Source: an uncultured Nitrospirota bacterium
GTDB taxonomy: Bacteria > Nitrospirota > Thermodesulfovibrionia > Thermodesulfovibrionales > CALJEL01
Assembly: GCA_947085365.1 (NCBI GenBank)
Contig: CAMTWD010000009.1
Coordinates: forward strand, 1-50,048
Reading direction: 5' to 3'
DNA length: 50,048 nucleotides
A model generated the notes under the pieces. That model saw only the letters and a program-made list of their open reading frames with translations. It made no database searches and was not told the origin of the DNA. Both the position numbers and the translations under genes were made by a program. Positions 725 through 42,062 of the stretch are shown piece after piece. Numbering within the stretch: the stretch's first letter is position 1; each line of letters begins with the position of its first letter.

Positions 725-2346
725 CAAAGGTTAAGGCCCTTATATTCTTCAGAATAGGTTTTACAATACTTCTTCTGGGCTCTTTCCTTCTTTTAAAGCT
801 ACACCCATCGCCCCTGCCCTACCATCATATGATAAAATATCTGGTTCTTAGCATATTTATCCTCAGTTTTATTTATCTCCTGATCCTCCCATATATTAAA
901 AACCTCAAGGCCTTTGCCTATCTCCAGCTCATCATCGACTCCCTCTTCATAATAGCCCTTATATTCATGACAGGGGGAGTGGAGAGCTGGTTTACCTTTC
1001 TCATGATTCTGAATGTTATAGCTGGTAGTATCGTGATAGGAAGGACTGGAGGGTTTATCATCGCCACAATCCTCAGCCTTTTATACGGCCTTCTGATAGA
1101 CCTTCAATTTTACAAAGTGATCCCCCTTGCCTTTGATCCATCTTTAAAAGTCTATCATTTTCTCTATAACATCTTTATCCATATATCAAGTCTCTATCTT
1201 GTAGCGTATCTTTCAGGTTATCTAACGAGCAGGCTTCAGATGACCTACCAAAGACTAAAAAGCACAGAGCATGATCTTTCAGAGCTCAGGGCATTGAATA
1301 CCATTATTGTGGAGAATGTCCCCAGTGGCATCGTTACAACCAATGGTGAGGGGAAGATAATCGCCTTTAATAGTTGCGCAGAGCTGATTACAGAGATACC
1401 CAGGAAAGAGGCAATAGGGAAGTCTATCTACGATATCTTTCCTTTTCTGAGAAATTCCCTTGAGACCCCTGAGCTTCGTATCAGGACCGAGGGGAGTATA
1501 AGGGTAAAGGGTGGTGAGAAGTTCATAGGAATAACCATTAATAAACTCAGACATCACGATACCTCCCGTAGTGGCGGAGTAACTGTTGGATTGATTGGAG
1601 TCTTTCAGGACCTTACAGAGATCAAAAAAGCAGAGGAGGATGCAAAGAGGAGGGAGAAGCTTGCTGCCATAGGTGAGCTTTCCCGCAATATTGCCCATGA
1701 GATAAGAAACCCCTTAGCATCTCTGAAGGGTTCTATTGAGATCCTTATGGAAGACAGGATATCCCCTGAACAGAAAAAGAGGCTTATGGAGATTGCCCTC
1801 AAGGAGATGGAGAGACTCAATAAGATAATAACAGACTTTCTCATTTATGCGAAACCATCTCCTCTGCGCATTAAGAATTTCAATCTGATAGATCTTATTG
1901 ATGAGGTAATATTCATCCTCCGGAGCTCACCAAAGGCTGAGGGAGTAATGATTGAACGAGACCTTTCACCTGAACTTAGTGGCGAACTGACAGGTGAAGG
2001 GATGCTGATATCAGGAGATGAGGCACAGCTCAAACAGGTATTCTTAAATCTTGGTTATAATGCCCTTGAGGCCTTAGAGAACCAGCCATTCGCAAAGAGA
2101 CTCAATATATCCATCCAGAGGGAGGGAGAATTTGTTACCGTATCCTTTAAGGATTCAGGTCCAGGAATAAGGGAAGAAGACATTGATAAGATCTTCTATC
2201 CCTTTTACTCCACAAAAGAGGATGGCAGCGGACTCGGCCTCTCCATTGCCTATAAGATCATAGAGGAACATCATGGTAAAATATCAGTAAGGAGTTCTCC
2301 AGAAGGGACTGTATTTGATGTAATGATACCAATGGTGGCGAAGTAA
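721..2346 (+). CDS. Membrane sensor histidine kinase (PilS-like): about 6 TM helices, PAS-like region, HisKA and HATPase_c
   Basis: GTG start overlaps the pilC stop. H-box NIAHEIRNPLASL, N-box LNLGYNALEA, G-boxes DSGPGI and GSGLGLSIA. Sits between pilC and a sigma54 response regulator. The stop codon lies inside a family-A motif copy. Confidence 0.85.
   Translation: MTKVKALIFFRIGFTILLLGSFLLLKLHPSPLPYHHMIKYLVLSIFILSFIYLLILPYIKNLKAFAYLQLIIDSLFIIALIFMTGGVESWFTFLMILNVIAGSIVIGRTGGFIIATILSLLYGLLIDLQFYKVIPLAFDPSLKVYHFLYNIFIHISSLYLVAYLSGYLTSRLQMTYQRLKSTEHDLSELRALNTIIVENVPSGIVTTNGEGKIIAFNSCAELITEIPRKEAIGKSIYDIFPFLRNSLETPELRIRTEGSIRVKGGEKFIGITINKLRHHDTSRSGGVTVGLIGVFQDLTEIKKAEEDAKRREKLAAIGELSRNIAHEIRNPLASLKGSIEILMEDRISPEQKKRLMEIALKEMERLNKIITDFLIYAKPSPLRIKNFNLIDLIDEVIFILRSSPKAEGVMIERDLSPELSGELTGEGMLISGDEAQLKQVFLNLGYNALEALENQPFAKRLNISIQREGEFVTVSFKDSGPGIREEDIDKIFYPFYSTKEDGSGLGLSIAYKIIEEHHGKISVRSSPEGTVFDVMIPMVAK
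1569..1586 (+). repeat. Family-A motif copy (tagtggcggagtaactgt), in frame in the pilS-like gene (SGGVTV)
   Basis: Matches the consensus nRGTGGCGARGTAACAGT with 2-3 substitutions. Confidence 0.6.
1976..1993 (+). repeat. Family-A motif copy, degenerate (ttagtggcgaactgacag), in frame in the pilS-like gene (LSGELTG)
   Basis: TTAGTGGCGA core intact, 3' half diverged. Confidence 0.45.
2332..2346 (+). repeat. Family-A motif copy that provides the pilS-like stop codon (atggtggcgaagTAA)
   Basis: GGTGGCGAAGTAA read as V-A-K-stop. Abuts family-C element copy A. Confidence 0.7.
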
Positions 2347-2491
2347 ATGAGGCTGAAGGCTGAAGGCGATAGGCTGAAGTTAAAGACAAAATAGGCTGAA
2401 GGCAGTAGGCTGAAGTTAAAAAATAATTTTTGTTTTTTCTTCAGCCTTAAGCCTATCTTCAGCCTTCAGCCTAAAGCCTTAAGCCTAATTT
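2345..2491. repeat. Family-C hairpin element, copy A (GGCTGAAGG / CCTTCAGCC arms), about 147 bp
   Basis: The left arm is built from AGGCTGAAG 9-mers and the right arm from the complementary CTTCAGCC/CTTAAGCC units, around an A/T-rich loop. Termini are AAATGAGGCT...AGCCTAATTT. Flanked by GGTGGCGA motif copies. Confidence 0.8.
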
Positions 2492-2505
2492 GGTGGCGAG
2501 ACCAG
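2491..2505 (+). repeat. Family-A motif, partial (tggtggcgagaccag)
   Basis: GGTGGCGAG core at the right flank of family-C copy A. Confidence 0.5.
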
Positions 2506-2516
2506 AGGGAGATAAT

Positions 2517-4655: not shown

Positions 4656-4663
4656 CTCCTAAT

Positions 4664-5326: not shown

Positions 5327-5343
5327 ATATTTTGTTATTTTAA

Positions 5344-6696
<1,353 letters not shown>

Positions 6697-11366: not shown

Positions 11367-12889
11367 AGGGAATGGTATATATAGTTGGAGCAGGACCTGG
11401 GGACATCGGGCTTCTTACAGTGAAGGGTCTCAGGTCTCTTCAGAGGGCAGATGTGGTTGTTTATGACTTCCACATAAATGCCCAGATACTGAATTATATT
11501 AAACATGATGCAGAATTCATCTATGCTGGTAAGAGGGGTGGCCATCATGAACTCTCACAGGAGGAGATCAATCGTATCCTTATTGAGAAGGCAAAAGAAG
11601 GCAAGGTTGTCTGCAGGCTCAAGGGTGGTGACCCCTTTGTATTCGGAAGGGGTGCTGAAGAGGCAGAGGTACTTGCCAGAGAGGGAATACCCTTTGAGAT
11701 TATTCCTGGTATAAGTTCAGCAATTGCAGTGCCTGCCTATGCAGGTATACCCCTCACCCATAGAAACTACTCCTCTCTATTCACAGTTATTACGGGTAAT
11801 GAGGATGCCACAAAACCAGAAAGCACTATAAACTGGAAGGCCCTTGCAGAACTGGATGGGACCCTTGTCTTTTTGATGGCTGTAAGGAATCTCGAGGCAA
11901 TTACTGAAAGATTAATTATAAATGGAAAAGACCCCGATACACCAGCAGCACTTATAAGGTGGGGAACCAGGGCAGACCAGATAACCTTTACAGGAACCCT
12001 CAGGAATATTCCCGAGATTGTGAGACTAAATGATGTAAAACCACCTGCTATATTTATTGTGGGCAGGGTCGTGGAATTAAGGAGGTTCCTTCAGTGGTAT
12101 GAGAAGAAGCCCCTCTTCGGTCACAGGATATTGATTACAGGGAAGGTCTCCTCTGAATATGAAAGGCTTGAACTCCTCGGTGCAGAACTCATAGAATTCC
12201 CCACTATCGAGATCGTTCCGCCAGAGGACTGGGGCGACCTTGATAAAGCGATAGATGGAATCGAGACCTATAACTGGATTGTCTTTACAAGTGTTAATGG
12301 AGTCAATTATTTTATGGAAAGGCTTCTCCAGAAAGGTAGGGATGTAAGGGCACTTAATGGATTAAAGATATGTGCTGTCGGTAGTTCCACAGCCTCAGAG
12401 TTAAGACGATATGGGATTCTGGTAGATCTTGTGCCTGAAGAATTCAGGGCAGAGGGTCTTGTCTCTGCCTTCAAGGATTTATATAAAGGTAGTTTAAAGG
12501 GAGTGAGGATCCTCCTTCCGAGGGCAGAAAATGCCAGGGAGGTCTTTCCTGAAGAGATTAGGGCCCTTGGAGGAGAGATAGATACACCAGTGGCCTACAG
12601 GTCTCAGAAACCTGAGACCCATGCAAAGAGGATCAGGAGATTCTTAAAAGAGGGAAGGATAACAGTAGCGGTCTTTACAAGTGGTGCAGGTTTTAAAAAC
12701 TTCATTGAGCTCATTGGTGGCATTGAATTCTTAAGGGATATAAGGATTGCCGCTATAGGTCCTGTAACAAAGAAGGCAATAGAAAGGTATGGCCTTTCTG
12801 TCTCCATAATGCCTCAAAGGGCAACAATTGAAGACTTGGTGGAAGAGATAATTAAAGGCCTCTTTTCTTTTTCTTCAGCCTACGCTTAG
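11363..12889 (+). CDS. cobA: Bifunctional uroporphyrinogen-III C-methyltransferase / uroporphyrinogen-III synthase
   Basis: N-terminal SUMT domain (VGAGPGDIGLLT, LKGGDPFVFGRG) and C-terminal HemD domain. The last residues (GLFSFSSAYA) are encoded by a truncated family-C hairpin element. Confidence 0.9.
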   Translation: MKGMVYIVGAGPGDIGLLTVKGLRSLQRADVVVYDFHINAQILNYIKHDAEFIYAGKRGGHHELSQEEINRILIEKAKEGKVVCRLKGGDPFVFGRGAEEAEVLAREGIPFEIIPGISSAIAVPAYAGIPLTHRNYSSLFTVITGNEDATKPESTINWKALAELDGTLVFLMAVRNLEAITERLIINGKDPDTPAALIRWGTRADQITFTGTLRNIPEIVRLNDVKPPAIFIVGRVVELRRFLQWYEKKPLFGHRILITGKVSSEYERLELLGAELIEFPTIEIVPPEDWGDLDKAIDGIETYNWIVFTSVNGVNYFMERLLQKGRDVRALNGLKICAVGSSTASELRRYGILVDLVPEEFRAEGLVSAFKDLYKGSLKGVRILLPRAENAREVFPEEIRALGGEIDTPVAYRSQKPETHAKRIRRFLKEGRITVAVFTSGAGFKNFIELIGGIEFLRDIRIAAIGPVTKKAIERYGLSVSIMPQRATIEDLVEEIIKGLFSFSSAYA

Positions 12890-12925: not shown

Positions 12926-14358
12926 TTAAAGGTGTTTTCCGTGCTATAAGGACTGAGCCTGATCCCAAGCTGCTTTAACTTTCTATAAAGGGCTGTTCTT
13001 TCAAGACCTATTGCCTCAGCCGTTTTTGAGATATTCCAGTTGTTTTCCTGGAGCCTTTTGATAATAAAGTCCCTTTCAAGGGCATCTCTGGCCTCTTTAA
13101 GGGTCTTAAATTCAAGATAGGATTGATGTTGGTGGCGAAAGTAACAGTTGAAGAGACTCGATTCCTGGCATAGTGGCGAGGTAACAGTTGGTGGTGAGGT
13201 AACAGTAAAGAGACCTGTTTTGAGGTCAGAGGCTGTAATCACCCCCTTTTGGCACATTATTACAAGCCTCTCTACAAGATTCCTCAATTCCCTTACATTT
13301 CCAGGCCAGTCGTAGGTGGATAAAGACTTAAGGGCATCCTCTGATATAGCCTTTGGGGTCTTTCCATATTCAGCAGCTATAAGCTCAAGGAAGTGCCTTA
13401 CAAGTAAAGGTATATCCTCCTTCCTTTCCCTGAGTGGAGGGACCCTCAGTGGTATGACATTTAGTCTATAGAATAGATCCTCCCTAAAGTTTCCCTTTCT
13501 CACCTCCTCTTGGAGGTCTTTATTCGTAGCAGCTATAATCCTTACATCCACCTTTATATTCTTGCTTCCACCAACCCTCTGAAACTCCCTTGTCTCTATG
13601 GCCCTCAGAACCTTTGCCTGGGCATCCATGGACATATCACCAACCTCATCAAGGAAGAGTGTTCCTCCATCAGCAAGTTCAAATTTCCCCTTTTTCCTCT
13701 CGACGGCTCCAGTAAAGGCCCCTTTTTCGTGGCCAAACAATTCACTCTCTATAAGCTCCTTTGGAATGGCAGCACAGTTGACCTCCACAAAGGGCCCACT
13801 CCGTCTTGGACTCCTTTCATGGATCAGCCTTGCCACGAGCTCCTTTCCTGAGCCACTTTCACCAGTTATGAGGACTATACTGTTGGATGAAGCCACAAGG
13901 TCTATCTTGGACCTGAGCTCTCTTATAGCTGGAGATTCTCCAATGAGTTTATACCTCTTTGTGGCATCCTCTTTAAGGGACTTAAGGGCCCCTTCAAGAT
14001 TTGCCATCTCAATTGCCCTTTTGACAGTTATTAAGACCCTTTCAAGAGATAGGGGCTTTTCAAGAAAGTCGTAGGCACCCAGTTTTGATGCCTTTACTGC
14101 CAGCTCTATTGTTCCGTGGCCTGATATCATGATCACCGGGACCTCCGGCCTTCTATCCCTCATTATCCTCAGTGCCTCTATCCCATCCATCTTTGGAAGC
14201 CATATATCAAGAAGCACAAGGTCAGCAGAATCAAGGTGTTCTAAACCTTCTTCAGCATCCTCTGCTGTTATTACCTCGTATCCTTCGTCCTCAAGGATTC
14301 CCTTGAGGCTCTCCCTTATACCCTCCTCGTCATCTATAACAAGTATGAGATAAGACAT
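12919..14358 (-). CDS. Sigma-54-dependent response regulator (NtrX/AtoC type)
   Basis: Receiver (ILVIDDEEG, LLDIWLPKMDG), AAA+ domain (GESGSGKE, ESELFGHEKGAFTGA) and C-terminal HTH (ISKTAEAIGLERTALYRKLK). Three family-A copies sit in the AAA+/HTH linker. Confidence 0.9.
   Translation of the reverse strand: MSYLILVIDDEEGIRESLKGILEDEGYEVITAEDAEEGLEHLDSADLVLLDIWLPKMDGIEALRIMRDRRPEVPVIMISGHGTIELAVKASKLGAYDFLEKPLSLERVLITVKRAIEMANLEGALKSLKEDATKRYKLIGESPAIRELRSKIDLVASSNSIVLITGESGSGKELVARLIHERSPRRSGPFVEVNCAAIPKELIESELFGHEKGAFTGAVERKKGKFELADGGTLFLDEVGDMSMDAQAKVLRAIETREFQRVGGSKNIKVDVRIIAATNKDLQEEVRKGNFREDLFYRLNVIPLRVPPLRERKEDIPLLVRHFLELIAAEYGKTPKAISEDALKSLSTYDWPGNVRELRNLVERLVIMCQKGVITASDLKTGLFTVTSPPTVTSPLCQESSLFNCYFRHQHQSYLEFKTLKEARDALERDFIIKRLQENNWNISKTAEAIGLERTALYRKLKQLGIRLSPYSTENTFNP
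13129..13206 (+). repeat. Three family-A copies (antisense to the gene) in the linker of the NtrX-like regulator
   Basis: ttggtggcgaaagtaacagt ... atagtggcgaggtaacagt tggtggtgaggtaacagt. The gene strand reads TVTSPPTVTSPL...CYFRHQ. Confidence 0.9.
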
Positions 14359-14382: not shown

Positions 14383-16548
14383 TTACCTTTCTGGCAACTC
14401 AATAACAAATATGGCCCCTCTGGGGGTGTTATCCTTTACCTTTATAAAACCCCTGTGCTCTGTTACAATCCTCTGGGCAATGGCAAGACCCAGCCCAGAA
14501 CCACCTTTTTTTGTTGTGAAATGGGGCATGAATAACTTATCTTTTATTTCGTCAGGTATACCCGGACCATCATCAGCTATAGAGACGATTATCTTTTCGC
14601 CATTAAGTTGGGAGAGGGATATGTATATATTTCCTCTGGCCTCATTGCTGTGGGTGGCGAAAGTAACAGTTTCGGTGGCGAAGGTGATTGCCTCAATAGA
14701 ATTATCCATAATATTTATGAAAACCCTCTTGATCTGCTCAGGGTCCACCTCTGCCACCACCGCCTCGTCAGGAAGACTGAGATGAATGTTTATCTCTTTG
14801 AAACCCATGTAAAGATTATATACATCCCTAAGGATATCCCGCATATCCACAGGCCTCTTTTTTATCTGGGGCATCCTGCCAAATTGCGAAAAGTCCGAAA
14901 CGAGTCTTCTTAAACTCTCCACCTCTTTTATTATTGTTTTAGTGGAACTTTCAAAGACCTCATCAAAATCACTTTCTTTATTCTGCCATTTCTTTATAAG
15001 CCTCTCTGTAGAGAGTTTTATAGGGGTAAGGGGATTTTTCACCTCGTGGGCAATCCTTGAGGCAATCTCCTGCCATGCCATTGCCCTCTGGGCATTCACG
15101 AGGTCAGTAATATCATCAAAGACTACCAGCAATCCAATAATAGAGGAACCAGTTTCCTCCCTCCTCAAGGCTGTTATAAACACCCTGAGTATAAGAGATC
15201 TCTCTTTAATATTAATCCTTATCTCTTTCTCAATCCCTCTCAATTCCTTAATCCTTATCCCTTTTATAAGGTTTTCCAGTTCTTCAGATCCAATCGATTC
15301 AAGAAGTTCCCTGTAGGATCTACCCACAAACCCTGCGGCATCTACAGAAAGGATCCTTTCTGCAGCCCTATTCATGGAGAGGATCGTGCCTGAGCCATCA
15401 ATAAAGAGTACGCCTGTATTGATGTTCTCAAGGATACTTGAGAGTCTTATCCTCTGTGCCTCGGCCTCCATATAGGATTCCTGCAGGCGCTTCTTGCCTT
15501 CTCTTAATTGGCCAACCATCGTATTAAAATTCTCGATAAGATAACCAATCTCATCATTCCTGTTCTCCTCAGGAATTATCCTTACATCAAGGTTTCCTGA
15601 GGCTACCTTCATTGTTGCCTCTGTCAATTCCCTCACCGGTTCTGTAATCTTCTTTGAAATCCTCAGGGCTGCCCAGAGTGCAAGCATTATAATAAGGAGG
15701 GTAAAAAAGCCAAAGGTCATAACAAAATTTACTCTAAGAGGGAATTTCCACTTAAGTTTTAAGGAAAGCTCTTCATAATCCTTTTTGAGATTTTCAACTA
15801 TTAGTGGAATATCCTCTTGAACCTTTAAAGAACCCTTGAGAATATATACAGGGCCATCACTATTTGGTGGCGAATGTAACAGTTGAGGATTCTTAACCCT
15901 TACGGCAGCCCTTATATATTCTCCCTCTGGAGACTTAAATACATCTGATGCCTCACCCTTTAAGAAGGCCTCCTTTGTAAGTTCATCTGTATTGGTGGCG
16001 GATGAAGCAGTTGTGAGATCAAGGATTTCCCATTTGATATCTTCTTTACCCTCCTCACCTGTTACTTCTGCCACTGACATGATACCCTTAGAAGTAGAAA
16101 GGTATCGAGCCCTCCTTTTTGCCTCAGAAAGGAGATACTCCTTCTTCTCTTCATAATATATCTTTGCCAGCCTTAAGGTATTCTCAAGGGAGCTCAGGCT
16201 TTGAGGTGTTAGCCATTTTTCAATATAACCTGTTACAAGGCCACTTCCCAGGGCAAAGAGAAATATACTTGGTAAAAGGATAAGGATCAGAAAGATACTG
16301 ACAAGCTGTATCCTGAACTTATGACCTGGTACATTCCTTTTTCTATCAATAAAAAGCCTCAGGATATTCTTACCCACATAAAATAGGAGGATCAGAAGGG
16401 CAAGGAGATTGAGATTTATTCCTAAGAGAAAGAGCATTGCATAAAGGGGTTCATTACCGAGTTTAATGAATCTCGTAAAAAGAAATATATTGACCCCCAC
16501 AAATATGGCAAGAAGAGGCAGTATCAGTAGAAGTTTATAGAACCTCAT
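14383..16548 (-). CDS. NtrY-like membrane sensor histidine kinase (HAMP-PAS-HisKA-HATPase)
   Basis: N-terminal TM helices, HAMP-like segment, PAS, H-box RIAHEVKNPLTPI, N-box NIMDNSIEA, G-boxes DDGPGIP and GGSGLGLAIA. Contains four motif-derived inserts. Confidence 0.9.
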   Translation of the reverse strand: MRFYKLLLILPLLAIFVGVNIFLFTRFIKLGNEPLYAMLFLLGINLNLLALLILLFYVGKNILRLFIDRKRNVPGHKFRIQLVSIFLILILLPSIFLFALGSGLVTGYIEKWLTPQSLSSLENTLRLAKIYYEEKKEYLLSEAKRRARYLSTSKGIMSVAEVTGEEGKEDIKWEILDLTTASSATNTDELTKEAFLKGEASDVFKSPEGEYIRAAVRVKNPQLLHSPPNSDGPVYILKGSLKVQEDIPLIVENLKKDYEELSLKLKWKFPLRVNFVMTFGFFTLLIIMLALWAALRISKKITEPVRELTEATMKVASGNLDVRIIPEENRNDEIGYLIENFNTMVGQLREGKKRLQESYMEAEAQRIRLSSILENINTGVLFIDGSGTILSMNRAAERILSVDAAGFVGRSYRELLESIGSEELENLIKGIRIKELRGIEKEIRINIKERSLILRVFITALRREETGSSIIGLLVVFDDITDLVNAQRAMAWQEIASRIAHEVKNPLTPIKLSTERLIKKWQNKESDFDEVFESSTKTIIKEVESLRRLVSDFSQFGRMPQIKKRPVDMRDILRDVYNLYMGFKEINIHLSLPDEAVVAEVDPEQIKRVFINIMDNSIEAITFATETVTFATHSNEARGNIYISLSQLNGEKIIVSIADDGPGIPDEIKDKLFMPHFTTKKGGSGLGLAIAQRIVTEHRGFIKVKDNTPRGAIFVIELPER
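14650..14690 (+). repeat. Two family-A copies inside the HATPase domain of the NtrY-like kinase
   Basis: gtgggtggcgaaagtaacagt ttcggtggcgaaggtgattg. The gene strand reads ITFATETVTFATH, directly after the N-box. Confidence 0.8.
15863..15883 (+). repeat. Family-A copy in the NtrY-like sensor region
   Basis: tttggtggcgaatgtaacagt. Confidence 0.75.
15991..16011 (+). repeat. Family-A copy, degenerate, in the NtrY-like sensor region
   Basis: attggtggcggatgaagcagt. Confidence 0.5.
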
Positions 16549-16563
16549 TCTTACCTCGCCACC
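16549..16563 (-). repeat. Family-A copy forming the entire 15-nt spacer between the DUF4390-like gene and the ntrY-like gene
   Basis: Minus strand reads TGA-GGTGGCGAGGTAAGA-ATG. The GAGG within the motif sits at SD distance from the ATG. Confidence 0.75.
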
Positions 16564-17202
16564 TCATTCTCCGCCTATTCTGAATACAGGGGACTCCCTC
16601 GATACAGAAAACTCCTTTTCAGGGACAAAAAACAGAAGATACCCCACCACAGGAGGAAGCCTCCTGAGCCTTGACTCCACAGTGACTTTTATATAATAAT
16701 CCCCTGGGGCAAGCCCCTTGATATTTAAGAGGGGGAGGGACTTTATCTCCCTCATCTCCTTTAGCATGGATTCAAAACTCTTATACCTTTTTTCAATAAT
16801 ACGCCTTCTGTTTCTATCGTAGGAATGGAGGATGTATTCACCTTTAATAACATCTCCTACTATCTTTCTTTCAATAGAATTTCCAAATACATACTCATCA
16901 GCCCAATTCCTCCAGACCTTGAAGAGGTCTATATAAAAGATGAGCTCCTTCTGAACACCGTTCTTTGCTTCCTTGACGAAAGACTCATCAAGGATTACAG
17001 AGGTAGAAACAACAAGTTCATCGCCATTAATCCTCACATCAAGAGAACCTATCTCTGCAGCAAGACCTGATCCTGTCATGTATAGAATAAAAAGGCCTGA
17101 AAGGAGTAAAATAATAGGAAGGCTCAGACTGTTACCTCGCCACTGGGCGAGGTAGAGTGGGCCTCTCTTAGGGGATTTTCCTATGCAGATGAGGAAGACC
17201 AT
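16564..17202 (-). CDS. DUF4390-like exported protein encoded upstream of the NtrY-like kinase
   Basis: N-terminal signal/TM segment, position immediately upstream of the ntrY-like gene, and size typical of DUF4390. The exact start is uncertain because the 5' region is built from motif copies. Confidence 0.5.
   Translation of the reverse strand: MVFLICIGKSPKRGPLYLAQWRGNSLSLPIILLLSGLFILYMTGSGLAAEIGSLDVRINGDELVVSTSVILDESFVKEAKNGVQKELIFYIDLFKVWRNWADEYVFGNSIERKIVGDVIKGEYILHSYDRNRRRIIEKRYKSFESMLKEMREIKSLPLLNIKGLAPGDYYIKVTVESRLRRLPPVVGYLLFFVPEKEFSVSRESPVFRIGGE
17127..17160. repeat. Inverted (REPIN-like) pair of family-A copies in the 5' part of the DUF4390-like ORF
   Basis: gactgttacctcgccactg overlapping ctgggcgaggtagagt. 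Confidence 0.8.
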
Positions 17203-17237: not shown

Positions 17238-17249
17238 TTAGTGGCGAGG
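17238..17249 (+). repeat. Family-A half copy supplying the SD of the adenosine-kinase-family gene
   Basis: ttagtggcgaggagggctttATG. Confidence 0.6.
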
Positions 17250-17257
17250 AGGGCTTT

Positions 17258-17743
17258 ATGGAACTTAAAACAGTCAAGATAGGTATTCCCGAGGGCTGTA
17301 ACATAATCCTCGGACAGACCCACTTTATTAAGACCGCTGAAGATCTTTATGAAGTGATTGCCACCACAGTACCGGGAGCCGAATTTGGTATAGCCTTCAC
17401 AGAGGCCTCAGGCCCCTGTCTTATAAGAACAGAGGGCAATAATGATGAGCTTATAAATGCCTGTGTGAAGATTCTTCAGGATATAGGGGCTGGTCATATA
17501 TTTTGTATCCTTTTGAGAAGGGCCTATCCAATAAATATCCTGAATCAGATAAAGGCCTGTCCGGAGGTCTGCAGGATATTCTGTGCCACTGCCAATCCCC
17601 TTGAGGTTATCGTCTGTGAGACCTCCCAGGGTAGGGGTATAATAGGTGTTATTGATGGCTTTCCACCAAAGGGAGTTGAAGGCCCTGAGGATAAGAGAAA
17701 GAGAAGGGAATTCCTAAGGAAGATAGGATATAAATTAGGCTGA
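17258..17743 (+). CDS. Adenosine-specific kinase family protein (PF04008-like)
   Basis: Family-like N-terminus (MELKTVKIGIPEGCNIILGQTHFIKT) and size. The SD is provided by GGCGAGGAGG. The TGA stop lies inside a family-C hairpin element. Confidence 0.6.
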   Translation: MELKTVKIGIPEGCNIILGQTHFIKTAEDLYEVIATTVPGAEFGIAFTEASGPCLIRTEGNNDELINACVKILQDIGAGHIFCILLRRAYPINILNQIKACPEVCRIFCATANPLEVIVCETSQGRGIIGVIDGFPPKGVEGPEDKRKRREFLRKIGYKLG

Positions 17744-17818
17744 AGGCTTAAGGCTGAAGAAAAAAGACAAAAATTATTTTTAAACTTCAGCCTATCGCCT
17801 TCAGCCTTAAGCCTAATT
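17732..17818. repeat. Family-C hairpin element, copy B, about 87 bp
   Basis: AAATTAGGCTGAAGGCTTAAGGCTGAAG - A/T loop - CTTCAGCCTATCGCCTTCAGCCTTAAGCCTAATT. Contains the TGA stop of the upstream gene. No family-A flanks. Confidence 0.8.
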
Positions 17819-17837: not shown

Positions 17838-18242
17838 ATGAAGATAAAGAACATCACAGTGAGGAGTAAGGCGAGGACAGAGTTTATTGATATTACTGCT
17901 GAAATCCAGAAGATAATTGATGAAGCAGGCATAAAAAACGGTATATGCTATCTATTCGTGCCCCACACCACAGCAGCAATTACAATAAATGAAGGAGCTG
18001 ATCCCTCTGTTCAGCGGGACATACAGGGTATGCTCAGCAGACTTATCCCTCAGGATCTGAATTATCAACACAGGGAGGGAAATGCCGATGCCCATATAAA
18101 ATCCACAATTGTGGGAGTGGATAAGTCTGTCTTTATTGAAGACGGAAGGCTTGTCCTTGGAACATGGCAGGCTATATATTTCTGTGAATTTGATGGCCCA
18201 AGGCACAGGCGGGTTATTGTGAAGCTGATCCCCGATGACTGA
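17838..18242 (+). CDS. yjbQ: YjbQ/UPF0047 family protein (secondary thiamine-phosphate synthase-like)
   Basis: HTTAAITINEGADPSV, GNADAHIKS, LGTWQAIYFCEFDGPR. The ATG at 17838 follows GGGAGGA. Confidence 0.85.
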   Translation: MKIKNITVRSKARTEFIDITAEIQKIIDEAGIKNGICYLFVPHTTAAITINEGADPSVQRDIQGMLSRLIPQDLNYQHREGNADAHIKSTIVGVDKSVFIEDGRLVLGTWQAIYFCEFDGPRHRRVIVKLIPDD

Positions 18243-18273
18243 TTTGTGGCGGAGTAAGTTGGTGGCGAGGTAA
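18243..18273 (+). repeat. Two family-A copies downstream of yjbQ
   Basis: tttgtggcggagtaag ttggtggcgaggtaa. Confidence 0.75.
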
Positions 18274-18366
18274 ATGAGGTTGAAGGCAGTAGGCTGAAGA
18301 AAAAAACAATAATCCTGTCTTTGTCTCTTTTCTTCAGCCTTCAGCCTAAAGCCTTAAGCCTAATTT
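18272..18366. repeat. Family-C hairpin element, copy C, about 95 bp
   Basis: AAATGAGGTTGAAGGCAGTAGGCTGAAG - loop - CTTCAGCCTTCAGCCTAAAGCCTTAAGCCTAATTT. Bracketed by GGTGGCGAGGTAA and AGTGGCGAGGTAA. Confidence 0.85.
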
Positions 18367-18401
18367 AGTGGCGAGGTAACAGTGGGTGGCAAAGTAACAG
18401 T
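18364..18401 (+). repeat. Two tandem family-A copies. The second provides the GTG start of the 285-aa ORF.
   Basis: tttagtggcgaggtaacagt gggtggcaaagtaacagt. Confidence 0.9.
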
Positions 18402-19239
18402 AGAGATTGCCAGATTAAAGGAGGAGATTAAAAGACTCAGGAAGGTCTTGAGGGATATCTCCCCCAGCCTCGAGGCCCTTCTCAGAAAGAGGGGGCTCAG
18501 GATTTATAAGAAAGAACCTTCAGAAGACCTCCTTTTACCAGATCCTCATTATATTGACCAGTATTACCAGAGACTCCAGAAGTATTCCTTCAGACTCTTC
18601 CTGAGAGATGTAATAAAATACCAGAAGGGTTTTTCCCTTGAGGATGTAACAAGATATGCTACAGAAGAGGTGACGGCCCAATACATCTCCTATCTTGAGG
18701 AGATAGGGCTGATTGAGAGGTCAGGGAAGAATAGATTCTTTCTGAGAAGACCTGTCAGGAGCTTTGGTGAGACCCTTGAATGGTTTTTTGCCGAGCTCTT
18801 AAAGAGGGAATTCTTTATGGAGGCTACCTGGGGAGTAAGATTTAAAGATACTGAGAAGAGGACCTTTCAAGACATTGGTGAGATAACAGTAGGGGGAGAC
18901 TTTGATGTGATAGCAAAATTTAACGGCTCAGTACTCTATGCGGAGGTAAAATCCTCTCCCCCAAAGCAGATATACCAGGAGGAGATTAAGGCCTTTTTAA
19001 AGAGGGTAGAGCTCCTGAAACCCGAGATAAGCATATTCTTCATGGATACAGAATTGAGGATGAAGGACAAGATAGTGCCCATGTTTGAAGAGGAGATCGG
19101 AGAAGGACTCGAACGGGTTGAAAGGGAGATATTTCACAAGGATTATCACCTTTATATAATGAATTCAAAAGAGAGTATCCTCCACAACATTGAGACCATC
19201 CTTTCATGGTATCATAGGCATAAAAGGATGGCGAGGTAA
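18382..19239 (+). CDS. Hypothetical protein: coiled coil, winged-helix-like region and a PD-(D/E)xK-like C-terminal region
   Basis: Long ORF. GGDFDVIA...YAEVKSS resembles a D...ExK nuclease-fold motif. The only plausible start is a GTG inside a motif copy, and the TAA stop is inside another copy. Confidence 0.5.
   Translation: MGGKVTVEIARLKEEIKRLRKVLRDISPSLEALLRKRGLRIYKKEPSEDLLLPDPHYIDQYYQRLQKYSFRLFLRDVIKYQKGFSLEDVTRYATEEVTAQYISYLEEIGLIERSGKNRFFLRRPVRSFGETLEWFFAELLKREFFMEATWGVRFKDTEKRTFQDIGEITVGGDFDVIAKFNGSVLYAEVKSSPPKQIYQEEIKAFLKRVELLKPEISIFFMDTELRMKDKIVPMFEEEIGEGLERVEREIFHKDYHLYIMNSKESILHNIETILSWYHRHKRMAR
18874..18890 (+). repeat. Family-A copy, degenerate, in frame in the 285-aa ORF (IGEITV)
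   Basis: attggtgagataacagt. Confidence 0.55.
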
Positions 19240-19293
19240 GAATGAGGTTTGGCACTGTTGCTTCGCCACCAAGCCCAGTGGCGAGGTAACAGT
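19226..19293. repeat. Three family-A copies (forward, reverse, forward). The second and third form a REPIN-like hairpin.
   Basis: ggatggcgaggTAAg (stop of the upstream ORF); cactgttgcttcgccaccaag; ccagtggcgaggtaacagt followed by AGGAGG and the ATG at 19304. Confidence 0.85.
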
Positions 19294-19303
19294 AGGAGGC
19301 AAT

Positions 19304-19501
19304 ATGCAGAAGATAGAGGCCTGTGCCATATGTGCCTGGAGGCAGAACTGCCAGAAGAAGTTTTCTCTTTCAGGCAGGTCTCTGCATTGCCCTGAATTTG
19401 TAAGGGATATAAGCATTGAATCCCCACTCATCAGTGGCGAAGGTAACAGTGGCGAGGTAACAGTTGGGGATCATAAAAGACTTGAGGGAGAAGAAAAATG
19501 A
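19304..19501 (+). CDS. Small Cys-rich hypothetical protein (65 aa)
   Basis: The ATG is preceded by AGGAGG. Cys pattern CAICAWRQNC...CPEF. The C-terminal third is encoded by two motif copies (SGEGNSGEVTV). The stop overlaps the fba ATG (ATGA). Confidence 0.45.
   Translation: MQKIEACAICAWRQNCQKKFSLSGRSLHCPEFVRDISIESPLISGEGNSGEVTVGDHKRLEGEEK
19431..19464 (+). repeat. Two overlapping family-A copies in the small Cys-rich ORF
   Basis: tcagtggcgaaggtaacaGTggcgaggtaacagt. Confidence 0.9.
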
Positions 19502-20763: not shown

Positions 20764-20767
20764 CAGT
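20751..20767 (+). repeat. Family-A copy providing the fba stop codon and lying 2 nt from the pfk ATG
   Basis: agtggcgaggTAAcagtaATG. Confidence 0.9.
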
Positions 20768-22224: not shown

Positions 22225-25200
22225 ATGCGAAGCCATTCTGAGTATGTTCCCCTACACCTACACACAGAATACAGCCTTCTTGATGGAGCAATAAAGATAG
22301 ATGAACTTGTGAAGGTGGCTTCAGAATTCCGCCTTCCCGCCCTTGCCATTACAGATCATGGAAATATCTTTGGTGCTATAGAGTTTTATGAGAAGGTATC
22401 AAAGGCTGGCATTAAACCCATCATAGGAGCCGAGGTATATGTTGCACCTGAGAGTAGATTTAAAAAACATACTGAGAGAGGAAGCACAAAAGATTCCAAC
22501 TGTTACCTCGCCACTAAGTGTGGTGAGAATGCCTATCATCTGATTCTTCTTGCAAAGGACATCTCAGGATACAAAAATCTCATGAGGCTTCTGACCCTTG
22601 CCCATCTTGAGGGCTTTTACTATAAGCCCAGGATAGACAACGACCTTTTGGAACAATATTCCGGAGGGCTCATAGCCCTCTCTTCCTGTATGAAGGGAGA
22701 GATACCCCTTCTTTTATTGAAAGGCGATATAGATGGAGCTCGCAGAAGGGCCCTTTATTATAAAAATCTCTTTGGACCTGAAAATTTTTACATTGAGCTT
22801 CAGGCAAATGGTATTCCAGAACAGGAGGAGCTCAACAAGAGGCTCGCCCTACTGGCGGAGGAGATTCATGTGGGTGTAGTGGCAACCAATGATTGCCATT
22901 ATCTGAGAAGAGAAGATGCAAAGGCTCACGAGATATTGCTCTGCATCCAGACAAATAAGACCATTAATGACACCGACAGGATGAGATTCCCGACAGATGA
23001 GTTTTATTTTAAGTCTCCTGATGAGATGATGGCGGAGTTTAGCTCAGTTCCAGAGGCAATAAGGAATACAGTTCGGATAGCCGAGAGGTGCAATCTTACC
23101 CTCGAACTCGGCAAACCCCTTCTGCCTGAATTCAGCACACCTGATGGAAGTCCCCCCGAGGTCTTTCTTGAAAGGATTTCGATAGAGGGGCTCAAGAGGA
23201 GGTTCAGGGATAAGGAGATACCCGAGAATTATCGCAAGAGGCTTCATGGGGAGCTCCAGATGATAAAGAAGATGGGATATTCCTCTTATTTTCTTATAGT
23301 ATGGGATTTCATAAGATTTGCTAAGGAGAGGGATATACCAGTGGGGCCTGGAAGGGGTTCTGCTGCAGGAAGCCTTGTGGCATGGGCACTGGGCATTACA
23401 GAGATTGACCCTATAAGGTATTCCCTCCTTTTTGAGAGATTTCTCAATCCTGAGCGGGTAAGTATGCCTGACATAGATGTGGATTTCTGCAGGGACAGGC
23501 GTGAGGAAGTAATAAGATATGTCCAGGAGAAATACGGTGTAGATCAGGTGGCACAGATAATTACCTTTGGGACCATGGCATCAAGGGCTGCTGTAAGGGA
23601 TACAGGAAGGGTGCTCGGTATGCCCTATCAGGAGGTGGACAGGATTGCAAAGCTTATTCCAGTGAGTGCTACTAAGGAGATAAATCTGAAGACCGCCCTT
23701 GAGCTTTCACCTCCACTTAAAGAATCCTATGAAAAAGACCCCAAGGTGAAAGGGCTTATTGATATAGCCATGAAGCTTGAAGGTCTCAAGAGGCATGCCT
23801 CAGTGCATGCTGCTGGTGTGGTAATAGCACCTGAGCCACTTACGGAATATACTGCCCTTTACAAGGGTTCTAAAGGCGACGAGACGATAACGACACAGTT
23901 TGACCTTGAGGCCCTTGAGAAGGTGGGGCTTATAAAATTTGATTTCTTAGGGCTTGATACCCTCACTATAATCGATAGGACAGTGAAATATATAAAAGAA
24001 AAAGAGAGGGATTTTGATCTGAACCAGATCCCCCTTGACGATAAAGAGACATACAGGTTGCTCTCTGAGGGAAGGACTGCAGGCATCTTTCAGCTTGAGG
24101 GTTCTGGGATGAGGGAGCTTCTTATGAAGTTGCAACCTGATAGATTTGATGACCTTATTGCCCTTGTGGCACTTTACAGACCTGGCCCCTTAGGAAGTGG
24201 GATGGTTGATGATTTTATAAAAAGAAAGAAAGGCCTTGTCCCTGTAGAATACGACCTGCCAGAACTTAAGGATATCCTTGATGAGACCTATGGTGTGATT
24301 CTCTATCAGGAACAGGTAATGAGGATCTCCAATGTTATTGCAGGATTCTCCATGGGTCAGGCTGATCTCCTCCGGAGGGCTATCTCAAAGAAGGATCCTA
24401 TTCTTATGGAGGAGATGAAGGAGAAGTTTATTAGGGGTGCCTTGGAGCGTGGCTATTCAGAGGAGGTTGCCAGTAGGCTTTTCGGGCTGATTGAATATTT
24501 TGGTAATTACGGATTCAATAAATCCCATTCAGCTGCCTATGCCCTTCTTGCCTATCAGACCGCCTATCTTAAGACGCACTATCCTGTGGAGTTTATGGCT
24601 GCCTCTCTTAGTGCAGAGGTTAACAAGACTGAAAAGATCATAAGGCTTATAAATGAATGCGATGCGATGGGAGTAAGGATATTACCTCCTGATATTAATA
24701 AGAGTAGCGCTGAATTTACTATTGAAGATGGTGCGATAAGATTTGGCTTAAAGGCAGTAAAGGGTGTGGGTGTAGGGGCAATTTCCGCCATCACAGAGGA
24801 AAGGGATAAGAGGCCTTTTGAGTCCTTAGAGGATTTTTTAAAAAGGATGGTGGATGATCCTACCAATTGTTCCCTCACCACCGATAGTGGCGAAGTAACA
24901 GGGGGTCTCACAGGGGGGAACGAATGTTCCCCCCTGTGTACCCCCGAAGTAACAGGGAGAAGGCGCCTCAGCAAAAAGGTTATTGAGGCACTTATAAAGG
25001 CTGGCGCCTTTGATTCCTTCGGGATTTCGAGGCAGGAGGCCCTCCAGATCCTTGAATCGCCCAGAAGCAGAAAGAGCAGGATACAGCCGAGCATGTTTGA
25101 TGCGGTTGAGGAGGGGTCAGAAAATAAAAAGGATTTCTCACTGGTACCTTCGCCACCAATCGGATTCAGCCCTGATACCCTACAACTTGAAAAGAAATTT

Positions 25201-35518: not shown

Positions 35519-35547
35519 TTGAACTTTTATTTAAAAGGAGGTCATGA

Positions 35548-37169: not shown

Positions 37170-37174
37170 GGTAA

Positions 37175-37214: not shown

Positions 37215-37280
37215 TTTTGATGACAGCTGAGCTGGCATGGTCATTAAAACCATAAATTAATCAAAAAGGAGGTAAGGGAG

Positions 37281-39332: not shown

Positions 39333-39340
39333 GCAGGTCT

Positions 39341-39360
39341 CTAAAGTGGCAAAGTAAAAG
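39341..39360 (+). repeat. Family-A copy, degenerate, just after the hppA stop
   Basis: ctaaagtggcaaagtaaaag. Confidence 0.45.
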
Positions 39361-39396
39361 GGGCTGACCTAAAAGGTCAGCCCTATTTTTTGTTTT
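39360..39396 (+). terminator. Intrinsic terminator after hppA
   Basis: GGGCTGACC-taaaa-GGTCAGCCC stem-loop followed by TATTTTTTGTTTT. Confidence 0.8.
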
Positions 39397-39422
39397 CAAA
39401 AGGGGTAAACACCTTTGTTCCC

Positions 39423-39440
39423 CTAAGTGGCGAAGTAACA
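39423..39440 (+). repeat. Family-A copy upstream of the ykgJ-like gene
   Basis: ctaagtggcgaagtaaca. Confidence 0.7.
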
Positions 39441-39458
39441 AACGTTCGGAGGTTTTAA

Positions 39459-40235: not shown

Positions 40236-40244
40236 AAAACCTCA

Positions 40245-40342
40245 CTTACTGGTGAAGTAACAGTTACTCAGTCGCGAGGTAACAGTCGGGGGTACACAGG
40301 GGGAAACAAAGTTCCCCCCTGTGAGACCCCCGAGGTAACAGT
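40245..40342 (+). repeat. Composite repeat (two family-A copies, family-B G-rich palindrome, family-A half copy), intergenic copy
   Basis: cttactggtgaagtaacagt tactcagtcgcgaggtaacagt CGGGGGTACACAGGGGGAAACaaaGTTCCCCCCTGTGAGACCCCCG aggtaacagt. Confidence 0.9.
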
Positions 40343-40372
40343 CGGTTTAATAGGCGTGGTAAAGAGTGATGC

Positions 40373-41089
40373 CTAAGGAATTTGTGAGGTAGTATTGATG
40401 AGTTCTACAACATATCTGAAGAAGTTGAACGATAGGTCATCGGGCATATCAATTATTGAAGCACCGCAGATATAGTTTTGGTCTTTTTTTATGCAGTAGG
40501 CAATCCTTACCTTTATAACGGTTTGATTGCCTGCCCTTCTTGACGAAAGTCTGATATTGTAAAGACTGCCCGGTTGAAGGGCTTGATCTGTAATGAATTG
40601 GAGACCATGCTGGCTGAGATTTGTAATATGACCATTTAATATCCTCCCTTCAGCATCAATAATGAGTTCGATGTATCTTTGAAGGATTTCTGGAAGGGGA
40701 TAGCGGATTTCCTTTCTCTTTTCCTGGTATTGAGTTAGTGGAGAAGTAACAGTACTTAGTGGCGAGGTAACAGTCGGGGGTACACAGGGGGGAACATTCG
40801 TTCCCCCCTGTGAGACCCCCGAGGTAACAGTTGGTTTGAAGGAGAGTCTGAGGTCATGGGCTATCTGGATATATTTTATCCAGTTCATGATTTCATAAAG
40901 ACCCCTCACTGCTTCTTTGATTCTGATGGCGAGTTCTGGGTTCTCTGTTTCTCTCAGTATCTGCTGGAGGATTTCCGATGCGCCAAATGTCTTATTTATC
41001 AAAAGGTCAGAGAGGCATTCTATCTGTTTTTTATTATTTATAAAACAGCCCTCCATCCCCCCACATATGCGGTTACATCTTTCAAGCAC
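40373..41089 (-). CDS. PilZ-domain protein with a helical N-terminal region
   Basis: The C-terminal half has PilZ-like RxxxR and D/NxSxxG elements (RKEIRYPL, ITNLSQHGLQF). A 33-aa linker is encoded entirely by a composite repeat. GTG start overlaps the upstream stop, and the start is uncertain. Confidence 0.6.
   Translation of the reverse strand: MLERCNRICGGMEGCFINNKKQIECLSDLLINKTFGASEILQQILRETENPELAIRIKEAVRGLYEIMNWIKYIQIAHDLRLSFKPTVTSGVSQGGTNVPPCVPPTVTSPLSTVTSPLTQYQEKRKEIRYPLPEILQRYIELIIDAEGRILNGHITNLSQHGLQFITDQALQPGSLYNIRLSSRRAGNQTVIKVRIAYCIKKDQNYICGASIIDMPDDLSFNFFRYVVELINTTSQIP
40735..40831 (+). repeat. Composite repeat (same architecture as 40245-40342), in frame inside the PilZ-protein ORF
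   Basis: ttagtggagaagtaacagt acttagtggcgaggtaacagt CGGGGGTACACAGGGGGGAACattcGTTCCCCCCTGTGAGACCCCCG aggtaacagt. Confidence 0.9.
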
Positions 41090-41472
41090 TATAGATTTAG
41101 CTCCTTTTTCAGCCAGTCCTTTATCTCTTCTGTTATCCCGTACATCCCGTGAACAGGGGGATGAACTGGGTTTTCTATGGCCCTCTTCAGAAGTTCCTCA
41201 GGTATCTCTTCTATTATCCCAACGGTGTCTGCTATGTCACTTTTGTTCACCTTCATTAACATGAGTGTTGGTTTTTCTCCTGCTGTTTCTATATAGAAGA
41301 CATAACCTATCATCTTTTGTAATTCCTCAAGCTCCTCTTTTGACATCTGGAATCTTGGTTTCATGATCAGTGGAATGGAGGCATCAAATTTGATATTGGA
41401 GAGGATATCTGGTCTCCTTTTAATATCCTTCAGCTTCTGCATACTGAATATGTTTAACTCCTCTTGAGTCAT
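41089..41472 (-). CDS. Hypothetical protein (127 aa)
   Basis: ORF tightly coupled to flanking genes on the minus strand. No recognisable motif. Confidence 0.45.
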   Translation of the reverse strand: MTQEELNIFSMQKLKDIKRRPDILSNIKFDASIPLIMKPRFQMSKEELEELQKMIGYVFYIETAGEKPTLMLMKVNKSDIADTVGIIEEIPEELLKRAIENPVHPPVHGMYGITEEIKDWLKKELNL

Positions 41473-41476
41473 GCTA

Positions 41477-41800
41477 TCACCTCCTCAAAGGCCTTCTTTC
41501 TGGGACGACCCTGTGAGGTATTTTGCCTTCATTCCATTCCCTCGAAACATAGAGATAGCAGTAACAGCTTCCGTATTCTTTAATGTCTTCATCCCTGTAT
41601 TTACAGGGACATATTATATCTTCATCCTTTTCTTTTACACCTGTGGCAAGCCTGCAGGGACAGGATCTGTAGCCGTAACGCTCTTCATTTATTAAAAGGC
41701 CTCTTATGATGTCAAGGGTGAATTCCCTATCATTGTTAAGTTCAATACCCTGACTCTCAGCATATTTTTTTAAGATTTCGTAGAGGGCTTCAGGAGTCAT
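41477..41800 (-). CDS. Ferredoxin:thioredoxin reductase catalytic-subunit-like protein
   Basis: Characteristic Cys spacing CPCRL...CPCKY...CYCYLY of the FTR beta chain (4Fe-4S plus redox disulfide). Confidence 0.8.
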   Translation of the reverse strand: MTPEALYEILKKYAESQGIELNNDREFTLDIIRGLLINEERYGYRSCPCRLATGVKEKDEDIICPCKYRDEDIKEYGSCYCYLYVSREWNEGKIPHRVVPERRPLRR

Positions 41801-42062
41801 GTCCCAGGAGTCTCTTTTTTAAGAGTTCTGGATCATAACCCTTTATCACATCAGCTATAACAAGTGTTGGATATGTCTGCTGGGGATTGTATTTTTGAAG
41901 TTCCTTTGTCATAAGCCACTGCTCTCCGCTGTCAAGGGTATCAACCTCTATGACCTCATGGGGAATCTGATTCTCATCAAGAAATTTCTTTACCTTTTTA
42001 CATACAGGACAGGTGCTCAGGGCAAATAGTGTAACCTTCCTTACTGTTACCTCGCCACCCAC
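41790..42062 (-). CDS. Glutaredoxin/thioredoxin-like small redox protein
   Basis: VTLFALSTCPVCKK CxxC motif, YPTLVI block, 90 aa. Overlaps the FTR-like gene by 11 nt. The only start candidate is a GTG inside a motif copy. Confidence 0.7.
   Translation of the reverse strand: MGGEVTVRKVTLFALSTCPVCKKVKKFLDENQIPHEVIEVDTLDSGEQWLMTKELQKYNPQQTYPTLVIADVIKGYDPELLKKRLLGHDS

Follow-up and report, generated by a model that had tools for sequence, protein, structure and literature searches.

How do genes keep their ends when a short repeat is scattered through a genome at high density? The question is raised by a 50,048-nt stretch of DNA (contig CAMTWD010000009.1, hereafter the window) from an uncultured Nitrospirota bacterium, in which a motif with a 17-nt core recurs more than once per kb and in several places coincides with the stop codon, the start codon or the Shine-Dalgarno (SD) sequence of a gene. 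A sequence-only reading of the window had proposed that motif copies were co-opted for these roles and that the repeats are remodelling gene termini and translation signals. Our analysis favors a narrower reading, to which we give a probability of roughly 0.78: insertions of the repeat appear to have replaced native stop, start and SD signals with equivalents, under the filter of purifying selection. Remodelling was borne out at the glutaredoxin, histidine kinase, fba and adenosine kinase genes, two of the proposed SD sequences proved not to derive from the motif, and the term "co-opted" overstates the case; nothing indicates adaptive recruitment of the motif.

Alignment of the copies gave the 17-nt core RGTGGCGARGTAACAGT, preceded 5' by a weaker TT(A) flank. 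Searches of the window with GGTGGCRARGTAA at one mismatch or fewer returned 31 matches where 0.18 were expected, and a 17-nt position weight matrix (PWM) at a score of at least 14 found 41 copies against 0.2 in Markov nulls. Seven further copies belong to an 18-nt variant, GGTGGCGAA(N)GTAACAGT, that the ungapped scan had overlooked, and the total came to at least 52. Copies occur singly, in tandem with a period of 18-22 nt, or as inverted pairs forming hairpins; a single 21-nt unit has a folding energy of 0 kcal/mol, which is no improvement on its shuffles, and hairpins arise only from inverted pairs of units. Thirty of the 52 copies lie wholly within genes, while 22 lie in or straddle intergenic DNA, which is 4.9% of the window, mostly 6-18 nt past a stop codon or directly ahead of a start codon. 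This corresponds to an 8-10-fold enrichment at gene boundaries. Relative to the nearest gene, 37 copies are on the same strand and 15 on the opposite strand.

The coding properties of the unit, (T)TAG-TGG-CGA-GGT-AAC-AGT, bear directly on where it can be tolerated. It carries TAG in one sense frame and TAA in a second, and leaves one frame open (L-S-G-E-V-T-V). With the TTAG flank, CTT AGT GGC GAG GTA ACA GT reads LSGEVTV, C TTA GTG GCG AGG TAA reads LVAR-stop, and CT TAG TGG starts with a stop. In addition, its GAGGT fits the SD consensus of the organism, and the GT found 4 nt further on becomes GTG if the next base is G. Among the sense copies in or at genes, 13 read SGEVTV, two read WRGNS (both without the TAG flank) and three read VAR-stop, all three exactly at C-termini; antisense copies read TVTSPL seven times, CYLAT twice and LLPRH never. 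The 13/2/3 distribution is the pattern predicted by insertion followed by purifying selection. Coincidence statistics are unsuitable for the stop codons, since every sense copy in the closed frame contains a stop by its very sequence.

Four sets of sequences were compared with the window. The first comprised 80 loci from representative genomes (L001-L080; 1.15 Mb summed), with 64-84% amino-acid identity to window proteins in the closest loci and about 53-58% in most. The second was L081, a syntenic 4.3-kb contig of a distinct species (64% amino-acid identity in a gene for a conserved 285-aa protein), and the third was formed by the syntenic relatives L154, L155 and L156 (85% identity to the window in the glutaredoxin of L155). 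The last set consisted of contigs of co-occurring or related strains, 97-99% identical to the window (X1, X2, X5 and L082).

The 80 relatives' loci contained only five weak PWM matches, taken as chance, and matched neither the exact core nor its 13-mer. L081 has three good copies in its 4.3 kb, and L154 has only two degenerate ones. In L155, four identical perfect units with a 21-nt period (L155 positions 69-148) separate a ferredoxin-type gene from a GATase gene, and elsewhere its 20-kb locus has no good copy, only two weak PWM matches; syntenic relatives with about 85% glutaredoxin identity are thus almost motif-free over 16-20 kb. The low copy number in relatives, together with the 52 copies in the window, indicates that the motif is present at low copy number in the clade and was massively expanded in the lineage of the window. 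In run X1, word depth was 2154 at the dimer junction against 17, which implies more than 100 such junctions. The exact 17-mer gave 71 singleton matches in metagenome contigs. Several PWM matches were present only in L090, L105 and L150, none of which overlaps window genes; these three unrelated contigs, with four to five motif-like matches each, may come from additional lineages of the clade that carries the motif. In the literature searched, the motif sequence had only chance matches, in fish and human primer lists.

The copies arose by insertion, as sites with and without them demonstrate. Empty sites were found in L154, L155 and L156 past the CBS stop (CBS/hppA), past the hppA stop, at the glutaredoxin start and at atpE/hyp109; 3' of the CBS stop, the window has a 75-nt insertion holding two copies. 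Missing from strain X5 are 20+1 nt of DUF4390 (17128-17149), 19+2 nt of the kinase gene (15861-15883), 18 nt of the 37178/37198 pair and, at 13127-13206, 60 nt, equal to three copies. These three copies (13131-13206, + strand) fall in the linker of a sigma-54 response regulator, in antisense orientation and in frame (TVTSP.). At the fba stop, strain X5 has an additional 24 nt, a second motif copy, and strains X1 and X2 have a glutaredoxin array 20 nt shorter. Relative to orthologues, PilS has insertions of 7 and 9 aa at two internal motif copies. The strain indels in coding sequence and the PilS insertions are all multiples of three. SerRS has about 24 extra residues compared with PDB 2dq3 at the tip of the coiled-coil arm, the site of copies 5569 and 5593; the extra segment of this tRNA-binding arm (serS 5560-5620) contains an inverted motif pair. 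Comparison of filled and empty sites revealed no consistent target duplication at motif copies. Joints between distant copies in the strain assemblies are assembly-graph collapses at repeats and were set aside as evidence. Taken together, the empty sites in relatives and the strain indels establish that the remodelling events are real.

Two genes would start at motif-derived GTG codons. GTG 18382 and GTG 42062, which the sequence-only reading had put forward as motif-derived starts, are each the first start codon past the upstream in-frame stop, and comparison of the N-termini with orthologues agrees. That reading had overlooked that in both genes the SD, too, lies in the motif copy ending in the GTG (..GAGGTAACA-GTG). 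At the glutaredoxin gene, a three-copy array (42043-42098, - strand) covers the start: the middle copy supplies the SD GAGGT (42071-42067) and the GT of the GTG (42062-42060), whose last base, G 42060, comes from the spacer; the proximal copy, from 42059, encodes residues 2-7 (GGEVTV). All 17 of 17 aligned orthologues start with M(R/K)(K/R)(V/I)TLF, and their Met falls opposite window codon 7 (GTA), the final codon of the motif copy. Three syntenic relatives, without a motif at this site, read ..AACC ATG AGA AAG GTx ACA.., where the window reads ..AACA GTA AGG AAG GTT ACA.. after a 55-nt array. These alignments strongly support the view that a motif copy overwrote the native ATG. No further start candidate (ATG, GTG or TTG) occurs from the upstream stop to the CxxC active site. 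The fused glutaredoxin homologue 7pwe_A begins MTDKKIVLY.

The gene for the 285-aa protein has the same arrangement with two tandem copies (18367-18401, + strand). Here the first copy supplies the SD GAGGT (18373-18377) and the GT of the GTG (18382-18384), whose last base, G 18384, belongs to the spacer between the copies; the second copy, from 18385, encodes residues 2-7 (GGKVTV). No other ATG, GTG or TTG lies between the upstream stop (18361-18363) and TTG 18448 (codon 23), and a start at this TTG would delete the invariant residues E15, R18 and L19. In orthologues, M and a further 2-9 residues precede the conserved EIxxLKxEIKRLRK. The motif SD and GTG also front this gene in L081 and are conserved in strains L082 and X1; in L001-L003 its start is an ATG that overlaps with the stop codon of yjbQ (GATGACTGA). 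The two GTG starts predict (M)GGEVTVRKVTLF.. as the N-terminus of the glutaredoxin and (M)GGKVTVEIARL.. as that of the 285-aa protein. One copy here, 18385-18401, differs from its counterpart at L082 31-47 in 4 of 17 positions (GGTGGCAAAGTAACAGT vs GATGGCGAGGTAACGGT) in strains about 98% identical overall, which suggests conversion between copies or local hypermutability.

Stop codons tell a similar story at the other end of genes. As originally claimed, the motif TAA terminates three genes, at 2344-2346, 19237-19239 and 20761-20763, which are the ends of open reading frames (ORFs) 721-2346, 18382-19239 and 19498-20763. All three are real genes, encoding a PilS-like kinase, the conserved 285-aa protein and a class II fructose-bisphosphate aldolase. 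The first copy (2334-2350, + strand) gives PilS the last residues M-V-A-K (..GTVFDVMIP-MVAK-stop); orthologue tails after GT.F.V.LP have 1-25 residues, the closest ones 1-3. At the second (19227-19243, + strand), the 285-aa protein ends ..SWYHRHKRMAR-stop in the window, ..SWYHRNKPAVRFF-stop in L081 and ..SWYHKYKHGGLNL-stop in L001-L003, so that the relatives' proteins end two residues later, in unrelated sequence; this end comparison indicates that the motif replaced about the last five residues and left the protein two shorter. The third copy (20751-20767, + strand; GAGGT at 20757-20761) ends fba with ..VKTLTSVAR-stop, compared with ..AKVK-stop in L001. In strain X5 the extra copy shifts the fba stop to the TAG of the TTAG flank, giving ..VKTLTLT-stop: the C-terminus of this enzyme differs between strains by one repeat unit. 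Outside the window, the ferredoxin-type gene of L155 ends ..ELLVAR-stop within the first of the four tandem units. Altogether, protein ends were shifted by a few residues relative to orthologues, within about three where close relatives were compared.

A motif-derived SD had been proposed in three places, and only the one at 16549-16563 withstood comparison. There, a motif copy (16547-16563, - strand) occupies the junction between the DUF4390 stop (16566-16564) and the ATG of an NtrY-like histidine kinase (16548-16546). The junction reads TGA-GGTGGCGAGGTAAGA-ATG, with the motif filling the 15-nt spacer and GAGGT 4 nt ahead of the kinase ATG, where L001, L002, L003 and L081 have an ATGA overlap. 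The change is a 19-nt insertion, TGGCGAGGTAAGAATGAGG; the old kinase ATG (16567-16565) is now out of frame and opens a 10-codon dead-end frame. At 17241-17257, the SD is ancestral: the adenosine kinase gene (ATG 17258) has the SD GAGGAGG (17246-17252), with which a half motif, AGTGGCGAGG (17240-17249, + strand), is fused, itself preceded by a right-end remnant of the hairpin family C described below; L081 has GAGGAGG at the same spacing without the motif, so that this SD predates the half motif. At 19281-19303, 17 nt separate the motif GAGG from ATG 19304; AGGAGG at 19294-19299, just outside the motif, is the SD. Conversely, the sequence-only reading had overlooked pfk, where GAGGT of the fba-stop copy lies 7 nt before ATG 20769. 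Motif GAGGT spacing is 4 nt at the 285-aa, glutaredoxin and kinase genes and 7 nt at pfk. Compared with the native SD consensus of the window, AAGGAGGTG at a spacing of 4-7, GAGGT makes a weaker SD, yet a correctly placed one.

Two dead-end ORFs of 10 and 12 codons (16564-16567; 18235-18273) mark the ancestral starts of the kinase and 285-aa genes. The second runs from ATG 18235, the start position in three relatives, to TAA 18271-18273 of a closed-frame motif copy (18261-18277, + strand). Left behind by insertions, such ORFs could act as upstream mini-ORFs.

ATG 19304 opens a gene for a 65-aa CxxC...C..C protein (19304-19501), located between the 285-aa gene and fba, with its stop overlapping the fba ATG. 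It is conserved in L081, L001-L003 and many other loci and was left uncalled by the gene caller on contig L082. Upstream of it lies an inverted motif pair (19254-19293) with a hairpin of -13.8 kcal/mol, and two overlapping copies (19433-19464, + strand) are in frame (ISGEGNSGEVTVG) in its C-terminal part, where the residues of L081 are unrelated.

Two hairpin families insert into or beside the motif. Family C is a hairpin of about 90 nt built of AGGCTGA-type heptamers and is found at 2347-2492, 17733-17818 and 18274-18366, two of the elements joining the motif at the identical point GTAA|ATGAGG. One such junction is that of the two nested elements between pilS and pilR (2347-2492). Strain X5 lacks them and reads GGTGGCGAAGTAA-CAGTTA-GTGGCGAGACC, retaining the motif copy that forms the pilS stop, and the true start of pilR is ATG 2517, with its own SD. 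The element at 18274-18366 has motif copies on both flanks, and strain X5 is without family C at 18259-18362. The element at 17733-17818 (-22.6 kcal/mol) confirms the proposal that family C donates TGA 17741-17743: its left arm supplies the adenosine kinase gene with codon GGC and the TGA, giving GYKLG-stop in the window against GYKL-stop in four relatives, a gain of one residue. The parallel proposal for the end of cobA/hemD is consistent with our comparison, falling short of proof. The HEM4 domain ends at residue 494, homology stops at residues 496-499 of 508, and the tail, made up of the last 9-10 or so residues (..LFSFSSAYA-stop) and the TAG stop, coincides with a family-C-like fragment (12861-12889, + strand) that is 78% complementary to a C arm.

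The second family, B, is a palindrome of 47 nt with a perfect stem (-23.8 kcal/mol), located at 24901, 40286 and 40774. Its copies sit inside the motif, and the direct duplication flanking each is the copy-specific 3' part of the motif, GAAGTAACAGG twice or GAGGTAACAGTC twice; the stretches containing the element are 24886-24957, 40270-40343 and 40758-40832. At the first of these (+ strand), the motif copy, the family-B element and the GAAGTAACAGG duplication are all in frame within the essential dnaE. In strain X5, dnaE lacks exactly 54 nt, i.e., family B and one duplication, and 13 nt at the joint can be assigned to either side. With its 47-nt palindrome, a duplication of 11-13 nt and this precise 54-nt absence, family B meets the description of a miniature inverted-repeat transposable element (MITE) and looks like a tiny MITE targeting the motif. 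We also considered tandem motif copies as possible footprints of family-B or family-C excision, but family-B duplications comprise only the 3' 11-13 nt of the motif and cannot yield full units.

From these observations we propose that the host genome has been colonized by an ultra-short, non-palindromic repeat whose 17-nt core occurs in units of 18-22 nt. Units come and go as small indels, and families B and C insert into or beside them. Selection would keep in-frame copies in the loops and linkers of proteins, and closed-frame copies would persist only at the extreme 3' ends of genes, replacing the last few residues and the stop codon. At 5' ends and operon junctions, the GAGGT of a copy, in some cases with its GTG, would substitute for the native initiation signals that it displaced.

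We infer ribosome use of the GTG and SD sites from necessity, that is, from intact and conserved ORFs that have no alternative start. Several points weigh against this reading. Pfam scans detected no transposase or RAYT-like gene in the window besides an unrelated TnpB-like insertion, and the motif unit has no terminal inverted repeats, consistent target duplication or fold. Some tandem arrays could arise by slippage and not by insertion, as the four identical 21-nt units of L155 look to have done, and slippage probably contributes to the arrays. At fba, the gene of L003 ends ..EKVRDLSR-stop, with AGG TAA one codon later and without the motif; judged from this likeness, the fba copy may have formed on pre-existing similar sequence instead of creating a new stop. 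Finally, the survey covers 50 kb from one genome.

If copies were instead portable intercistronic junctions (SD-TAA-N2-GTG) that tune translational coupling or expression, the word co-option would be deserved. The cassette-like layout GAGG-TAA-CA-GTG invites this idea, as do the single fba/pfk copy that supplies both a stop and an SD, the motif-GTG start of the 285-aa gene kept in L081 across a distance of 64% amino-acid identity, and the enrichment at gene boundaries. We consider it unlikely: most copies (30 of 52) lie within genes or far from starts, copy number at the same boundary varies among strains, relatives work with native signals, and tolerance of insertions predicts the boundary enrichment equally well.

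Another reading is that the motif is itself a selected genomic signal, such as an uptake sequence of the DNA uptake sequence/uptake signal sequence (DUS/USS) type, as in Neisseria (DUS) and Haemophilus (USS), or a protein-binding site, that biased uptake or conversion makes it accumulate, and that its overlaps with gene ends are incidental. DUS/USS typically occur about once per kb, the window encodes the type IV pilus components PilC, PilS and PilR, inverted pairs follow genes, copies within genes have a USS-like frame bias, and the motif is common to several related lineages. DUS/USS arise as substitutions in colinear native sequence, however, whereas the copies described here are 18-24-nt indels relative to strains and orthologues and also form tandem arrays; this indel origin argues against a DUS/USS-type signal, as does the near absence of the motif from the syntenic relatives, and we regard such a signal as quite improbable. 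That the gene-end overlaps are annotation artefacts, with the affected genes (especially the glutaredoxin) being decaying pseudogenes or using other starts, is very improbable: GTG with a 5-nt SD is weaker than native AAGGAGGTG sites, but the glutaredoxin retains all invariant residues, 85% identity and an intact ORF in several strains, with no alternative start before its CxxC, and the 285-aa protein retains all invariant columns.

Replacement of native signals by inserted repeats therefore stands as the preferred reading, and the next question is what the unit is. Two junctions contain microhomology, namely a duplicated GAATGAGG at the kinase and AAC..AG at the glutaredoxin start, which hints at a copy-patch mechanism. 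A tentative and rather doubtful extension of this is that the 17-nt unit is an undescribed form of ultra-small, non-palindromic mobile DNA, spreading by microhomology- or template-guided patches, largely self-neutralizing, and serving as a landing pad for two hairpin MITE families. Its built-in TAG and TAA, its one benign open frame and its SD-N4-GTG layout would make the unit largely self-neutralizing, allowing more than one copy per kb, including copies in dnaE and serS.

Among known repeats, the motif is best described as a variant of small dispersed repeats (SDRs), as an analogue of the cyanobacterial ones and not a member. The SDRs of heterocystous cyanobacteria, reportedly introduced by Elhai et al. 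in 2008 (cited in PMC3116915) as "very small mobile repeated elements," are said to be imperfect palindromes of 21-27 nt. Like them, the motif consists of many-copy units of about 20 nt, has empty orthologous sites, is nested with other repeats, lies both within and between genes and encodes no enzyme. Unlike them, its unit is 17-20 nt and non-folding, belongs to another phylum, is unrelated in sequence, is far denser (>1 per kb), and is intragenic in over half of its copies. MITEs have terminal inverted repeats, a fixed-length target duplication and a size of 50-500 bp, unlike the motif with its 17-nt core, lack of terminal inverted repeats and lack of a consistent duplication.

Repetitive extragenic palindromic (REP) sequences are palindromic, extragenic and adjacent to a RAYT gene. 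REP and bacterial interspersed mosaic element (BIME) sequences occur as singlets, inverted hairpin doublets and tandems clustered just after stops (PMC3116915), and REP carry a GTAG or CGTC tetranucleotide head (PMC3733652). The motif resembles REP/REPIN/BIME in its high copy number, its singlets, inverted doublets and tandems, and its clustering after stops. It differs in that the unit is not palindromic (0 kcal/mol), in being intragenic in 30 of 52 copies and not mainly extragenic, and in having TTAG/TTGG flanks, with GTAG in one copy only (1570); moreover, there is no RAYT (Y1 transposase) among the 46 genes of the window.

In Neisseria, Correia elements are MITEs of 100-155 bp with terminal inverted repeats and a TA duplication, and dRS3 is an inverted repeat and integrase target. 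The composites of the motif (A) with families B and C, A-C-A and A-B-A, recall NIME/dRS3, in which 20-bp repeats flank other repeat blocks, but the motif has neither terminal inverted repeats nor a consistent target duplication and shows no sequence relationship to Correia/dRS3. Open frames of Correia elements fuse to host ORFs, and stop-containing versions stay intergenic (PMC2229807). Rickettsia palindromic elements (RPEs) insert in frame into a wide range of unrelated genes, essential ones included, and thereby add segments of peptide (PMC10969869). In-frame insertion with retention of the ORF, here in dnaE, serS, fdhD and pilS, makes the motif their analogue only: RPEs are 100-150-bp palindromes, whereas the motif unit is non-palindromic, adds 6-7 residues and also acts at termini. 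With DUS/USS, the motif shares a density of about one per kb, both orientations, an intragenic frame bias and inverted pairs downstream of genes.

The host of the window is a hot-spring Thermodesulfovibrionales sulfate reducer. Homologues of the window proteins come from metagenome-assembled genomes (MAGs) of Thermodesulfovibrionales/Nitrospirota, and the public runs containing the window sequence are metagenomes, one of which carries the label hot springs. Pfam scans identified a gene set of the sulfate-reducer type: pilC-pilS-pilR, fdhD, serS, cysK, hemA/C, cobA-hemD, two sigma-54 two-component systems, fba-pfk, dnaE, accA, adk, sat, aprBA, qmoABC, hppA, FTR-glutaredoxin, atpBE, gap and pgk. 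No Rfam family matched across the whole window. Between DUF1015 and gap lies a gene for a 561-aa TnpB/Cas12f-like protein with a TNB domain (45302-46987), which has no counterpart in the syntenic L154, L155 and L156 and to judge from this synteny is a lineage-specific IS-type insertion. A link of this gene to the motif was rejected, its flanks being without the motif or any evident relation to it, and no TnpA gene was seen. A PilZ-domain gene (40373-41089) holds two motif copies and one family-B element; it has no counterpart in L155 or L156, and the one in L154 is shorter, at 205 aa. The stretch from the CxxCxxCC gene to hyp127 varies within the clade.

For the annotation of Thermodesulfovibrionales genomes and MAGs, our findings mean that GTG starts within the motif and short tails of the form ..VAR-stop or ..VAK-stop should be taken as probably genuine. 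Assemblies break at motif repeats, which is a warning for MAGs of this group. If its mode of spread is new, the unit would be the smallest bacterial mobile unit known outside the cyanobacterial SDRs. More broadly, the locus would serve as a comparative example of a very short selfish repeat rewriting translation signals in real time: a native ATG has been erased in favor of a repeat-borne SD and GTG, an operon overlap has turned into an SD-driven junction, and co-existing strains differ in the C-terminus of an enzyme.

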